Source: a virus (Duplodnaviria; Heunggongvirae; Uroviricota; Caudoviricetes). From it: DNA of 64,000 nucleotides. The DNA lies in the IMG/VR virus record IMGVR_UViG_2713896799_000023; one strand, given 5' to 3'. Below, in pieces: positions 6,001-12,000 of this stretch. Numbering within the stretch: position 1 is the first letter of the stretch; each line of letters starts with the position of its first letter. Made by a program: the position numbers.

Positions 6001-9000
6001 ACGGGAAACCATCAAGGTTTAATCTTGGGAATATGCTATTAGCTGGTAGTGCTATCTATGCAGGTTATGAGAGATTAGCTTCTACACCTGAACGAATGGA
6101 AGCACAAGCTAAATTACCAGAGCTAGCTAAAGAGTCTGGACTTAAACCAGTGTTCACTATGGATGATGTGAAAGGTTGGTTTAATAGTGCAGCTATGAAT
6201 CTTGCCAACTTCCAGCATCCAGAATTAAACAACATTAAGCAAGATTCAGCATTAACGAGTGCAGATATCCAAAGCCTGAGAGATGAAATTAGTGCTTTGA
6301 GCAAACGTATTCAGGAGCCTGTGAAAGTTTCACTTGGTGGTGAAGTTGCCATTAAACCAGATGAAACCAGCTTTATGACCTTTAGCAGTAATATCTACGA
6401 CCAATACGCAGAAGCTACGCTATTAAGTTCATCATTCCCAGAAGATGATTGATAATAGTCGAATGCTACGTGAATAAAGCAAAGTTAATACCCACACCAA
6501 AAATTATTTTTCACGTAGCTCACGCTTAACAGAGAAAATACTTATATATCAAAGGCTTGGTTAAAAATGATTAAAATACACTAAGTCTTTGAAATCAAAG
6601 GAGAATTTAATGATTTACACTAATCAGCTTCGTTACACTGGTAAAGATGGCGTTTACTTTCATCTACAAGGCCAACCAGATAATTTCTTGTCACTATCAG
6701 CAACTGAAAACATGGAATTTGACAGCCCTATGATGGTTACCACTCAAAATATGCAATCAGGGCAAACCGTCACAGATAATGTGCAAAGAGCACCCAGAAC
6801 AATCACTATTAGTGGTGTCGTTGTAGTTGGTGAATCCGGTAGTATCCTTATCTCAAGAGATAATAAGCTGGTGGAAAACTTCATCGACACTCTGGAAAAC
6901 TGGCGTGACCAGAAGCAGATTATTTCTGTCATCTGTAAAGACGGCATCAAGATTGATGATTCCATTATTACGAGCTTTAAAGCATCTAAAGATGTTGGAA
7001 TTTCAAACGGCCTAAGAATCCAGTTAACTTTTCAGGAAATTAACTTTAAAGCTATTGTGGGTCAGACTGATATTTCTGCTGCTACTGGAAAGACAGCTAC
7101 TACAAATGATGGTGGTGCTACCAGTAAAAAGAACACTGGCAACACTACAACGAGTCTTGGAAGCCCTATGCTGACCTGTAAAGAGCTTTTTAGCTATTCG
7201 GCAAGTGAGTTATCAGATGAAGCGTTAAAAGCCCGTGTAACGTGCTCTAAGAGCGTTAGCGTTAAAAATGGTGAGAGCACCTTCACAGCCTCAGCTAATG
7301 AGCAGGCTTCAAAAGTGCTTAAGTCGGGTAATGCTTTACGGAAATTTAGTGTGAATCCTAACAAGAAGGGCACTTACTAATTGGTATCATCTACCAATCC
7401 CTAAGCGTCTACCTCTTCCATATCACCAGCAGGATAAATCCTTGTTACTGGTTCACCAAAGATAAGCATATCATCTAGTGACTGCATCTCATCGGTTGCT
7501 TCTTCAAGCGTTAAGGTGTGGTCATCTTTACCATCAAGAGGGAAACCACGAATCATATTTCCATTGTGAAGATATATATCCACCAGCTTTTCATTACCAG
7601 AAACAACAATCTCTTTCACCAGACGCTTAATGATAATCTGGGCTTCAGTTCTCCCCTCTACAGACTCCATATCAAGACCGCTTAAATCCAAGCTTGATAC
7701 AGATTTTACCCTCGCCTTTTCTCGTGATAACTGAACTATCAGTTCATCTTTTTCTTCCTGCTTAACCCGTAGTGCTTCCTGAATCTGAGTGATGTTAGGA
7801 AGCTGTATCAGCGTCTCAGTAAGTTTTTCAAGTTCACTATCAACGGTGTTTAATCTTCTTTGTAGTTCATCTAATTTAGCTGTATCGGTAGCTTCATCGT
7901 GTAGCTGTGATAGTTTGCTAAACAGACGACTGCAAAGCTGTGTATCAAGTAACTTTCTGGACACTGTACCGTAGCTACAACGGGACTCCTTATTACCATT
8001 GCAACGGTAAGTACCTTGATAAACGGGTTTACGTATCCCTGTAGGAGTCATTACAAGCCCACACTTACAACGGATAAGCCCCTTCAGTATGTTCACATAT
8101 AGCCAGTGTTCACCGCTGGATGTTTTCCCCTTCCCTGTTTCCTCTAACAGTTGCTGTACAGCGTAAAACTTAGAATCTGTGACAATCTGAGGATAGAACG
8201 ATTCAATTTCTTCACGTAACACTGTTTTACGGTCTTCTGAAGAAATCTTGGCGGGAAGGTAACCTAATACACTTCGTGAAGTCAGGATGTGTTTAACGCT
8301 TAATGCTGACCAGTTACCTTCCGGTTTCTTGGTCTTGGATATTCTGACCTTACGCTGATTAATGGTCGGGTAACCTTGTTCGTTTAGCCATTTACAGATA
8401 GCAAACATCGACATACCAGAAAGACGCTTGTCATAGATGATATTCACCAGTGACGCTTTATCTTCATCAACGATGTAGTGTGAACCATCTTCTGATAGCT
8501 CTAACCATCCGGGGGCTTGCTTACCCATAGGCTTCTTAAGTTCTCTTGCAAGCTGTGTTTTATGGTTCCAGACCTGAGCTATACGCTTTTGTTTAACAAG
8601 AGATTCCTGATGTGCTCGCTCAGCTATGATGATGTGCTTAATCAACTTCACAGGGTCTGTCAAGGCTGACTTGTCGTAGAGTTCACCATCTCCCAGAGTC
8701 AGTATAGAGACTCCCTTCCTCAGTATCTGCCTAACGTCATCAATAGCTGTGTCGATATCTGCCCTACTGAAGCGGTCAAAGTTCTCTACAACAATCAGGG
8801 AACCTTCTGGAATAGCCCCAGACATAACATTTTCAAACATACGTCTGAAGTCAGAACCTTGAGCCTTATGTTGCTGGTGAAAACCAGATTTACCCTTATC
8901 AACGTATCTGTGAGCAGGAAGAAGGTAATAATCGTTTTTGTGCTTAGAGTAGAAAGCATCAATGAGGTTTGTTTGTCTTCTTAAGGAGTCTCCTGAGTCT

Positions 9001-12000
9001 TGCTCTCTGGTACTCCAACGAATGTATGTCGCTAGCAACTTCATATCTTCGGACTATGCTTATCTAAGTGGTTCATTGAACAGGAGAACAATGATATGAG
9101 TGTTAAGGCAAGAATACTAGTGCTTTATTATTCCATGTACGGACATATTGAAACCATGAAGCATTAAAAACACAGAATTACCGAAGATCGTCCAAGAGCA
9201 TATACTTTTCAATATGTTAGACCTCATTTTGACCATAAAGAAATCGATTTTACACCGTTCTTTATACGTTCTTTTTTGCCCCAAATATGCCCCAAACAAC
9301 CACACTTTGCCCCAATAGCGCCCCAAAGATTTAAGGGGATTTAAGTATATATTTCAGATAATTAACGCAAGTTTACGATGTGAATTTACGTTAATTTTCT
9401 GGGTAGGGTATTTACCGTCATTCGTTCATCAATATTTCTGCATATTGACAAATACGCCTGAGCTATCGCGGGAGAAATGCAATGAAAGCAGCAAAAGGCG
9501 ATGTTAATCACCCTGCTCATCTCTGTATTACCGTCATTGTGACGGCACTGATAACGAAGAAAGACCTCTGCAAGGGAGGAATCCCTCGCCACCTCTGATG
9601 TGTCAGGTATCCTCACCCTCCCCAATCACATTAGCCCCGCACTTCCGTACGGGGCCATTTCTGTTAATCCACTCCCACTTTTTTGTTGTACTCGCGGTTA
9701 AACCGATCCACGGCAATTTTCATATCCCGCTCTACCGATTTCACCATCGCCGACTGTTGCGCCAGACTGAGAGTACTGTCGGCGTAAATGGCATCACGCT
9801 GTTTACGCAAATCCTTCAGTCTCTTCCGGGTATCCTGCATAAGCCCGTTCATCGACAATTTTCCGTTGTTCTCGTCAATGAACGCCGTTCTTTCTGCGCC
9901 GGTCAGACTCTTCAGCTCTGCGTGATACTGCGCAACCTCTGTCATCCGGTCGTACATCTTCTGCTGGTCAACATACGGCATCACCTCACCTGAAATTTTC
10001 CCCAGGAAAGGCACCTGCTGTTCCGGTATATCAATACCGTTCAGCGATTTCACCGCCGCATCCGTGGTTTTGGAAATGAAGCGCCCTGTACCACCAGAGA
10101 TATAGTCCACCCAGTATTTCAGCGATTCCGGTGTGATATCCACCGCGCCTGAACGGTACTGGCTGCCACCTGAGAACGCATTCAGCCAGGATGCAAACGC
10201 CTTGTACGCTTCTGGCGTTGAACGTCTTCCCAGCTGGCTGTCAGGTTTTGGTGTACCAAACGGCATGTTCTCCTGGTAAATCTGCGCCCCCATGAAGTTT
10301 TCATTCATGGCAAGGTTCGCAAACGGACGCAGAATGGTCGGCGCTGCATTTTTCAGCAATGCCCCGGACAGTGTTTCCGACGTCTCACTGCCAATCGGGC
10401 TGAATGCACCAAGCACACCACCAACAACATTACCGGCAGCACGGGACGCCGTCAGGTCACCCGCCGCCACACCTTCAGCGGTATGCCCGAGCAGGAAGAA
10501 AACGTTGTACCCGTAAGGCAGAGGAATACTCCAGTACTCTCCGGCCTTGCCCCCGAACACCGATTTCATAATGACGAGGTTACGCTCTTTCACATGAGAC
10601 GGCACCTTGTCATACCAGTTAACCCCGTCATCATCCTCCCCCGCAACACTGCGGTTAAGCGAGCCAAGCAGATAACCCGCTCCCACAGCTGCAAGCGCGA
10701 TTTTCTGCGGTACATTGAGATTCTTCCAGCGAAGGCGCTCCAGTAACGGCCCGTCGCCATTAAGATGTCCGAGCGTTCTCACCAGGTTTGCGGTCCCCTG
10801 AATGCTGGCGTTGGCGAACATGTACAGCGAGTTCATCAGCGCTCCCTGCTCACCACGACGGTTAAAGTTCACCGTCATGTTTTTGGCAAGAGACGCCGCC
10901 TGCTGGCGTGACAAACCGGCATCACGGGCGTGCTTATAGGCAGAAAGACGCAGAGCGTTTTCAACCGCACCGTTGGCATCCTCGACAAGGTTAAGGAACG
11001 AATTCCATGCACCGATACTCTGGCCTTTCCATCCCCCCTTCGCCAGTGAGACAAGGCGATCCATTTCCTTCTGCTGGCCTTCAAGGTCACCCATGTTAAA
11101 CCAGCCGGTTTTCCCTCCGTCCTCAACAAACTCTTTCCACACCTTCTGCCACTGTGCACCTTTTCCCGTGAGGGTTTTACCACGCAGACTGGCGTATACG
11201 GCTGACATGGCAGAACGGCTGTCTTTCACCACAGCCAGGGCGGATAAGTTATCCAGCCCTTTCAGTTTACCGTCGCTCCTTCCCTGCTCCGCCTTCAGGT
11301 TCATCACCGCCGTCTGCACGTCACGGATGAAGTTACTGACCAGGAATTCCGGGTTATACGACGTGTTCACCGTTGCCAGGAAGCGGTTAACTTTCCCCAG
11401 CGTACGAACAAAGGCATTGCTGGTTTCCGGTCCCATACTCTTCATCGCACGCATCAGGCGCGGATCATGGAGTTTGATGTAGTACGTTTTGCCGTTCTTT
11501 TTGGTGGTGAAGTACCGGTCTGCCATCATTGCCATCGGTACAGGGCGTTCGACAACTTCGCGAATGGTTTCACCAGTTTCCTGGTCCTTGCGCTCTGCAA
11601 TCGTCCGCATGGTATCCGGTCTGTCATCGGTGAATACCTGCCAGTAATCCTTGTCGGGATTATCCTGCACCAGTTTCAGGAAGGCGTTACCCACTTCGTT
11701 TTTGCGATGGCGGATCAGCGATTCGCTCAGGTCCTGTATCGCCTGAGTGGACGGAGACTGTGCCCGGGATGCACGCCCCATGGCCTGCCTGCTTTCACGT
11801 CCGCCGATGGTGAAGCCCTTACCTGTACGGGGCAGTGACACCACACCGTCAACATCCTGACCTTTCAGGGGAACGTAGTAACGGTAGGCGTTCTGCCAGG
11901 CATCCACCACACCGTTCTCTTCAAGTCCGGCCTCACGGATAAGCTCACGGCGACGGGCCAGCATATCGTCAATAATCCCTGCCAGACGGTCATACTGTGC

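Follow-up and report, generated by a model that had tools for sequence, protein, structure and literature searches.

The 64,000-nt stretch of DNA analysed here (the window; IMG/VR virus record IMGVR_UViG_2713896799_000023) is filled from 9160 to its end by a Stx prophage, and it raises the question of what the AT-rich segment at 6453-9044, just to the left of the junction between prophage and wrbA, represents. An earlier note on this DNA had described the segment as a two-gene module lower in GC than the prophage body, which the measured values bear out (41.1% in 6453-9044 against 50.6% in 9160-64000). The segment contains two convergent open reading frames (ORFs), one of 547 aa on the minus strand and one of 263 aa on the plus strand (6589-7380). 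We find that it is the right end of a separate integrative island of ~11.2-11.5 kb with its own attL and attR in wrbA. The island encodes a large serine recombinase (LSR) together with a predicted tape measure protein (TMP) and a predicted tail tube initiator (TI), which have homologues in virulent Felixounaviruses.

The boundaries of the island follow from comparison with other E. coli genomes, in which the TMP-TI-LSR block forms the right end of ~11.3 kb of DNA between ymdF and wrbA. In copy L001, attL reads …ATGGCTAAAGTTCTGGTGCTTT/TACATAGC… and attR reads …AAGAATACTAGTGCTTT/ATTATTCCATGTACGG…. Their common core, GTGCTTT, corresponds to wrbA codons 6-8; attP includes …AAGAATACTAGTGCTTTTACATAGCTAAAC… and attB includes …AAAGTTCTGGTGCTTTATTATTCCATGT…. 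The native wrbA promoter and first codons stay at the left end of the island, and the new wrbA start at the right end gives a protein beginning MSVKARILVLYYS…; RefSeq lists a 201-aa WrbA in island-bearing strains. Of 5426 complete E. coli genomes, 5127 have the empty site, with both host flanks joined, as contiguous sequence (identity up to 100%).

The Stx phage uses another site. Its att core, TTGAAACCAT, is located at 9148-9157, 28 bp downstream of the island core (LC645446 annotation and sequence), and the published att site of Stx phages in wrbA is TTGAAACSAT (PMC5592225). From 9120 on, the window is 100% identical to wrbA-type Stx phages (P13374, phiON-2011, Stx2_H27V05_wrbA). Within its first 60 bp, wrbA holds both the island and the Stx prophage, each independent of the other. 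The recombinase gene does abut an att core, as had been noticed earlier, but there are two cores, and the one belonging to the recombinase is not that of the Stx phage. Assignment of the module to the prophage body or to the Stx junction is ruled out by these distinct att sites. Because the two genes are adjacent, convergent and near the junction, one could read the LSR as the integrase at the Stx-phage/wrbA junction and the 263-aa protein as its directionality factor. We consider this scarcely credible, since the Stx phage has its own core and its records show native wrbA flanks without the module, the LSR-TI pair is found beside intact wrbA in strains without a prophage there, and the 263-aa protein matches a structural component, the tube initiator, as described below.

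The 547-aa ORF encodes an intact LSR. The earlier reading of resolvase motifs, a zinc ribbon and a coiled coil stands up to a hidden Markov model search and to inspection of the motifs. The Pfam models Resolvase (PF00239, E 1.4e-10) and Recombinase (PF07508, E 2.2e-19) both match, and Zn_ribbon_recom (PF13408) is found at E 2e-4 with 22.1 bits, just below the cut-off of 25.3. The protein has Ser11 in YIRWSTREQ, SLRRQ at 20, DRFSR at residue 90, zinc-ribbon cysteines at positions 326, 328, 348 and 356 (Cys326/328/348/356), and a heptad-like coiled-coil stretch at ~373-450. It matches PHROG 95 'integrase' (E 2e-77) and phiC31 integrase (E 6e-10), in an alignment that reaches the phiC31 zinc domain. 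The window LSR is 98% identical in aa sequence to the LSR of intact wrbA islands, residue-for-residue the same protein occurs in intact islands adjoining an uninterrupted wrbA, and the ratio of nonsynonymous to synonymous substitution rates (dN/dS) is 0.11-0.15. As in serine integrases of the phiC31/Bxb1/XisF/Ccr type, the resolvase, recombinase and zinc-ribbon regions follow in the same order, with a coiled coil in the zinc ribbon, and insertion is precise at a short core within a gene whose 5' end the element rebuilds. In contrast to these likenesses, the window LSR is only distantly related to them in sequence (the XisF model gives 62 bits against a cut-off of 375). The LSR probably catalyses the recombination at GTGCTTT; no candidate directionality factor was recognised in the island.

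For the 263-aa ORF, the earlier note had considered either a distal-tail protein belonging to a tape-measure module or a recombination directionality factor. The first proposal is borne out. The protein matches Pfam Dit_like (PF21821; E 5.9e-19, 68.9 bits, cut-off 24.2), PHROG 3721 (E 5.6e-127) and, over residues 12-263, PDB entry 9NDY_A, the 'tube initiator protein (gp018)' of phage Bas63 (E 2.3e-114). Its gene directly follows the TMP gene, both in the window and in every island and phage of this kind, and its dN/dS against other islands is 0.06-0.17. Translation from TTG at 6589 gives 263 aa, and translation from ATG at 6610, which is preceded by AGGAG, gives 256 aa; the ATG is likely the true start, and RefSeq homologues are annotated in this way. 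Full-length homologues with 70-72% aa identity are encoded in ~260 phage genomes, nearly all of them Felixounavirus or other Ounavirinae (tblastn). These matches identify the ORF as a predicted tail tube initiator, homologous to Bas63 gp18. A directionality factor, which would be a small integrase partner, is ruled out by this match to a conserved virion protein under structural constraint, an outcome that the earlier note had itself named as refuting a role in recombination.

In the Bas63 baseplate, a hexamer of gp18 is seated on the hub trimer and adapts C3 to C6 symmetry. The protein consists of a tube-like domain and a baseplate-spanning C-terminal extension of ~100 residues, and the tape measure, gp17, touches the hub with its last 25 residues (PMC12609058). 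The regions of the island proteins that correspond to such contacts are the ones that resemble the phage. In the TI, the tube-like domain, the linker and the last 10 residues are almost unchanged, and residues ~190-245, part of the baseplate-spanning extension, are island-specific sequence. The island TMP is 27-33% identical to phage TMP over its full length, with matches almost only in Ounavirinae. Its N-terminal 40 aa are 82% identical to the phage protein and the C-terminal tip LLSSS(Y/F)PE(E/D)(E/D) is common to islands and Felixounavirus TMP. The interior is 11-35% identical to phage, yet holds blocks in which divergent islands agree at 100%. The length of island TMPs is 679-723 aa (most copies 679-682), against 747 aa in the Felixounavirus HK3. 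In the window, ORFs 3932-4507 and 5856-6452 are fragments of the TMP gene (TMP_3), split by the insertion sequence (IS) element IS2. TMP and TI thus form a predicted two-gene tail-core cassette, homologous to and syntenic with gp17 and gp18 of virulent Felixounaviruses. Phage-compatible contact ends combined with private interiors would be expected of proteins that enter a Felixounavirus tail but act differently there. The hub is absent from the island genes, and a TI hexamer would therefore need the hub of a phage.

The cassette differs from the Bas63/Felix O1 gp17-gp18 pair, which has the same order and orientation, in being chromosomal and in the DNA between the two genes. In the phages the TMP and TI genes abut or overlap, whereas the islands have a conserved spacer of ~150 nt with a hairpin and a sequence box that have no counterpart there. 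The hairpin is the perfect 10-bp inverted repeat (GCTACGTGAA at 6465-6474 and TTCACGTAGC at 6510-6519) that the earlier note took for the left edge of the module. The repeat is real, but it is an internal element between TMP and TI and not an edge, because the low-GC island DNA runs on leftward into the TMP fragments at 5799-6452 and 3956-4466. A repeat of this kind is not rare by itself (18 pairs with 10-bp arms in the window against ~3.7 expected). It is kept in all seven island copies compared (7/7, Citrobacter included) with a variable 35-nt loop, and its predicted RNA fold has an energy of -15.0 kcal/mol (z -3.35). The box that follows, GCTTAACAGAG, is replaced by GCTTAACATAA in the Citrobacter copy L009. 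It includes CTTAACAG, the reverse complement of CTGTTAAG, which is the iteron class of the Felixounavirus gene-free region described below.

The island is one of a family. The TI gene is present in 476 of the 5426 complete E. coli genomes (~9%) and the wrbA-type LSR in ~54. A metagenome scan with the island core protein h184 gave 60 loci. Other copies are inserted between yciI and tonB (L003), in yecE (L004) and between lafU and dinB (L005), with LSRs that are 29-32% identical to each other between sites. Three of the sites, wrbA, yecE and the tonB/yciI region beside ompW (yciD), coincide with integration hot spots of Stx phages. More than 70 loci share a fixed gene order: variable cargo (small recombinase, Dam-HTH or other), a long non-coding stretch, h184 or an alternative protein of 313-326 aa, h93, HNH/h71/h128, h107, h236, in some cases hX, h69, TMP, TI and LSR. 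They include Citrobacter sp. (complete), E. albertii and Shigella (partial or rearranged) and metagenomes. The convergent TI/LSR pair is kept wherever the LSR is at the right end, which is the case in nearly all loci; in L005 the LSR is at the left end. Known hosts are Escherichia, Shigella, Citrobacter and Salmonella, in agreement with the host range of Ounavirinae.

Between islands, protein identity is 74-86% for TMP, 70-94% for TI and 23-85% for h236. All island genes are under purifying selection and their ORFs are intact, with dN/dS values of 0.06-0.21 for TI (dS up to ~2), 0.23-0.32 for TMP and 0.18-0.43 for h184, h107 and h236. The left-end cargo (Dam-HTH, AP2-HNH, small recombinase) varies. 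The Dam-type methyltransferase (L001 5570-6238), h128 (L001 8106-8492) and the small recombinase (L002 4627-5169) all end in a resolvase-type HTH_7 domain, and the three proteins may share DNA targets. The 313-326-aa replacement of h184 (L015 2299-3258, L084 18150-19118, L091 2348-3289) has weak winged-helix matches to DnaD_N, HTH_36 and HTH_Crp_2; encoded directly after the iteron-rich non-coding region, it is a candidate replication initiator. A 319-aa alternative first protein is unrelated to h184, and a PDB profile and sequence search with these two proteins gave no match. The AlphaFold2 model of h236 (L001 9505-10215 and homologues) consists mostly of long helices with a predicted local distance difference test score (pLDDT) of 69, and Foldseek against the PDB retrieved only generic coiled coils at E > 0.1. 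Many h236 copies carry the NCBI label 'transposase', with no supporting domain. Neither h236 nor h69 shows similarity to phage tape-measure chaperones.

The window copy is visibly decayed by IS elements, and RefSeq labels the genes merely 'tape measure', 'phage baseplate protein' and 'recombinase family protein'. Both observations could suggest a cryptic prophage, the remnant of a temperate phage with a serine integrase at wrbA that shares tail genes with Felix O1-type phages by chance. The family as a whole does not fit such an origin. The span from attL to attR is only ~11.3 kb, the same order of 10-12 genes recurs with different LSRs and at different sites, and purifying selection acts on each of the genes. 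The island, in which TMP and TI are the only structural genes, showed no remnants of capsid, terminase, sheath, tube or lysis genes. The island core genes have no match among 50,697 phage records, and TI homologues in phages occur almost only in virulent Ounavirinae. An ordinary decaying prophage is excluded by the short att-bounded element with its recurring gene order, purifying selection and core genes absent from phages, and we hold the idea of a prophage remnant to be very improbable.

If the island is a mobile element in its own right, excised forms might be found. The attP sequence was predicted from attL and attR first and then searched for. Metagenomic contig L074 (ERZ506742 NODE-633) has 11,233 bp and a coverage of 14.7. 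Its ends overlap by 55 bp, its genes are in circularly permuted order, and it lacks 25-mers of wrbA and ymdF. The predicted attP matched at 85 of 87 positions, between the start of the LSR gene and the left end of the island. The same attP junction is present in a second assembly, L076. The 23-kb contig OOBX01000469.1 (L041/L042) has the arrangement attL-island-attP-island and ends at the core, and its two 11.5-kb copies are 100% identical. Integration of a dimeric circle would be expected to give this arrangement, as could repeated integration. From these junctions together it is evident that excision or recombination of the island takes place exactly at GTGCTTT. That L074 is a free circle is favoured by its break point, which falls within h236, and by the lack of host branches. 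The other contigs of ~11 kb (L015, L017, L024, L030, L033, L069, L078 and L091) are all integrated copies with host flanks.

A second set of similarities to Felixounaviruses is found in non-coding DNA, where we compared four islands with the complete HK3 genome. A patch of ~160 bp (GATATTTTAA…TTTTGCAAAGGGGG … TTTTATAAAAATTTTCAGA.TCTGAAAAGTTAC) matches inside a 1.7-kb gene-free region of HK3 (20257-21928), and a 63-bp patch is 84% identical to the divergent-promoter region at 28801-28861. An element of ~84 nt ending in ~10 NNACC pentamers occurs four times in HK3 intergenic DNA and also upstream of the small recombinase gene of the islands, and its periodicity suggests that it may be bound by a multimeric nucleic-acid-binding protein. 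The element has a conserved head of ~35 nt, GTCGATTTTTAACGTGGCTAC…CCACCCATACC (L006 33659, 33789, 34048 and 35322; L002 5580-5663; L005 6411-6483).

In the HK3 gene-free region (L007 20257-21928) two transcription units converge, and the region is densely filled with iterons spaced by 11 bp (CTGTTAAG/CTTGTTAG/CTTAAAAG) and also has an AT-rich TTTTATAAAAATTTT block. The region, which may serve as an origin or in packaging, is apparently not discussed in the Felix O1 genome paper. The iteron class CTNTNAAG, or YTTAACAG, is found 29 times in the phage region against 2.6 expected (~10-fold). In the richest non-coding stretch of most islands tested, CTNTNAAG occurs 11-19 times against ~1-2 expected, with 7-8 occurrences in two others, so that the excess in island non-coding DNA is likewise ~10-fold. 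None of 500 composition-matched simulations (0/500) reached the observed iteron count of the richest island stretches, and the E. coli flanks have 0.4 per kb. A 361-bp non-coding stretch of the island matches 254 phage records, which have Ounavirinae-type names save for one 'Staphylococcus' record; nearly all of the matches listed fall in unannotated phage DNA. The GC content of the island is 40.8%, and that of Felix O1 is 39% (PMC3185647). Rfam searches of a whole island and of the phage gene-free region gave no meaningful match. The restriction of TMP, TI and non-coding/iteron homology to Ounavirinae establishes, at the level of sequence, a link to a helper phage and not a dependence on one.

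What, then, does the island do with a phage tail core? We infer that the family consists of satellite-type parasites of virulent Felixounaviruses, comparable to the PLEs of Vibrio cholerae, and we see even chances for this reading. Like satellites in general, the island has an integration module of its own without a full virion or packaging set, a circular form and a link to a helper. In a further step, which we put forward tentatively and with slightly less than even confidence, the family, with its hosts E. coli, Shigella, Citrobacter and Salmonella, would be the first whose helpers are virulent Felix O1-type phages and the first to bring its own tail core instead of remodelling the capsid, with phage-mimicking promoter, iteron and origin DNA that senses infection and an exchangeable LSR that chooses the site. 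Neither the island nor any satellite of Felix O1-type phages was found described in a literature search.

The proposed cycle would start with infection, upon which the phage-type promoter and iteron DNA in the left non-coding region would switch on expression and replication. The LSR, with a directionality factor that may be phage-encoded, would excise the circle, and the iteron/AT-rich region would act as origin, possibly served in some islands by the first-gene product with its weak DnaD_N, HTH_36 and winged-helix matches. The island TMP and TI would enter helper tail assembly through their phage-like docking ends, and helper particles would carry the island DNA away, to be integrated at wrbA once more. 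Phage-mediated transfer is the most plausible route of movement because the island has no conjugation genes.

PLEs are islands of ~18 kb that are integrated by a large serine recombinase, have mostly orphan genes and parasitize the virulent myovirus ICP1. The E. coli island is likewise a small LSR-integrated element in which nearly all genes are orphans, with a virulent myovirus as partner, no evident directionality factor and about one-seventh of the size of the phage genome (11.2 against 86 kb here). The two differ in that there is no sequence homology between island and PLE genes, the island hosts are Enterobacteriaceae, and helper dependence, replication and transduction have been demonstrated for PLE, whereas for the island they are proposed. 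PLEs are not known to encode tape-measure or baseplate proteins.

The island also shares traits with P4-like satellites, PICIs and cf-PICIs, which are integrative elements of 10-15 kb in E. coli with variable accessory genes, and some satellites encode homologues of helper structural proteins, as do cf-PICIs with capsid genes and P4 with Sid/Psu. These families, however, use tyrosine integrases and temperate helpers, and their hallmarks are alpA, pri-rep and sid/psu/delta, or capsid, portal and terminase genes. Tape measure or tube initiator genes are not known from any described satellite family. No Pfam or PHROG match to alpA, pri-rep, sid/psu/delta, a capsid module or PLE repA was found in the island ORFs, a weaker negative for PLE, whose specific proteins are not contained as such in these libraries. 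SatelliteFinder recognises four satellite families by hallmark genes other than those of the island (PMC10085698).

Several observations weigh against the satellite reading. A collapsed tandem array in the chromosome could in principle mimic a circle or yield the attP junction, only 1 of ~70 contigs is circular, IMG/VR contains three island copies only, each inside a larger contig, and an exact scan of IMG/VR for attP gave no match. The best nucleotide identity between island and phage is ~89%, with no sign of very recent exchange. Core ORFs other than TMP, TI, LSR, HNH and cargo have no Pfam, PHROG, PADLOC or PDB match, and no terminase small subunit, cos/pac site or capsid-remodelling gene was recognised in the island. 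The window copy itself is degraded, having lost half of TMP and other core genes with TI and LSR intact, and is probably no longer a working element. Phage induction, helper-dependent replication, packaging and transfer of the island are steps that we infer.

The lack of recognised packaging genes would also suit an island that serves defence only. In such an island, phage-type promoters would drive TMP and TI during infection, and the two proteins, as dominant-negative 'poison' subunits, would make the assembly of Felixounavirus tails or the ejection of DNA fail. The population would be protected in this way without the island being carried by phages. The phage-like docking ends with diverged interiors, the phage-like regulatory DNA and the variable left-end cargo are in line with this, as is the hyper-diversity of h236 (3081 clusters at 90% identity), which is expected in an arms race. 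A parallel in concept is given by the Tai (tail assembly inhibition) systems of PICIs, prophages and P4-like satellites, which are aimed at the tail assembly of a helper or invader. The likeness is conceptual only, as a function of a mobile element directed against tail assembly, and Tai proteins are not known to be homologues of tail-core proteins. PADLOC found no defence system on the island, the sole match being an orphan-methyltransferase model to the Dam cargo gene. The attP circle, the tandem dimer, the swapped LSRs and sites and the spread over several genera without conjugation genes indicate frequent horizontal movement, for which a static locus has no need. We therefore regard a purely defensive role as unlikely, although a serious contender; it is compatible with the satellite reading, because known satellites also interfere with their helpers.

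Features of the window copy and its surroundings are collected in Table 1. An intact island aligns collinearly with window positions 5799 to 9158 (96.1% identity). The TMP gene has lost its 5' half, and in L085, which has the same arrangement as the window, the left part of the island continues beyond the left edge of the window. The IS2 in the TMP gene has flanks that are collinear with L001 and shares 1334 bp at 100% identity with the IS2 of L004; the L004 IS2 is an independent insertion elsewhere in the TMP gene of that copy. On the Stx side, a perfect 11-bp inverted repeat (ACATATTGAAA at 9143-9153 and TTTCAATATGT at 9207-9217) straddles the phage junction and probably belongs to the Stx-phage att arms. 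The first large gene of the Stx prophage by the junction (9664-18084, minus strand) encodes a 2806-aa polyvalent protein with LPD5, LPD1, MuF_C and LPD38 domains and a metalloprotease-like HEWFH motif.

Table 1. Positions of island, insertion-sequence and wrbA features in the window.
Feature	Position	Strand	Basis or remark
IS3	1..~1214		sits in h184
Remnant of h184 (3' end) and h93 (5' end)	1269..1505	+	79-85% nt identity to intact islands (tblastn/blastn)
IS3-family element with nested IS30 (2430-3581)	1524..3900		replaces h93 through mid-TMP
TMP fragment, mid-gene	3956..4466	+	TMP_3 E 1.8e-14; 92-94% nt identity to TMP of L002-L005
IS2 in TMP gene, not island DNA	4467..5798	-	InsC/InsD-type ORFs; 5-bp target duplication
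TMP fragment, C-terminal ~217 codons, ends LLSSSFPEDD	5799..6452	+	96% aa identity to L001 TMP
Intergenic inverted repeat, 10-bp arms and 35-nt loop	6465..6519	+	between TMP and TI genes; not in phage
GCTTAACAGAG box	6524..6534	+	after hairpin; invariant in E. coli islands
Predicted tail tube initiator (TI, Dit-like), intact	6610..7380	+	PF21821, PHROG 3721, PDB 9NDY_A, synteny
Large serine recombinase, island integrase, 547 aa, intact	7401..9044	-	Pfam, PHROG 95, phiC31 match, motifs
Island right arm, attP-derived	9045..9119	+	replacement ribosome-binding site and wrbA ATG at 9096
GTGCTTT core common to attL, attR, attP and attB; LSR crossover within	9120..9126	.	attL/attR comparison
Native wrbA remainder between the two elements	9127..9157	+	ends in Stx att core; Stx prophage DNA next

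For the genomics of Shiga toxin-producing E. coli, two independent elements 28 bp apart in wrbA mean that an occupied site or a failed wrbA PCR is possible without a Stx phage. The islands also offer natural serine integrases with mapped att sites as tools, for wrbA, yecE, the tonB side and the dinB side. Felix O1-type phages are used in Salmonella typing, biocontrol and therapy cocktails, and if the island, which ~9% of complete E. coli genomes carry in related forms, targets their tail assembly, it would matter for susceptibility to phages and for the unintended transfer of genes. If the satellite reading is true, the island family would give E. coli a tractable model that parallels PLE and ICP1 in Vibrio, the helper being virulent here too, and would add tail-core hijacking to the known strategies of satellites.

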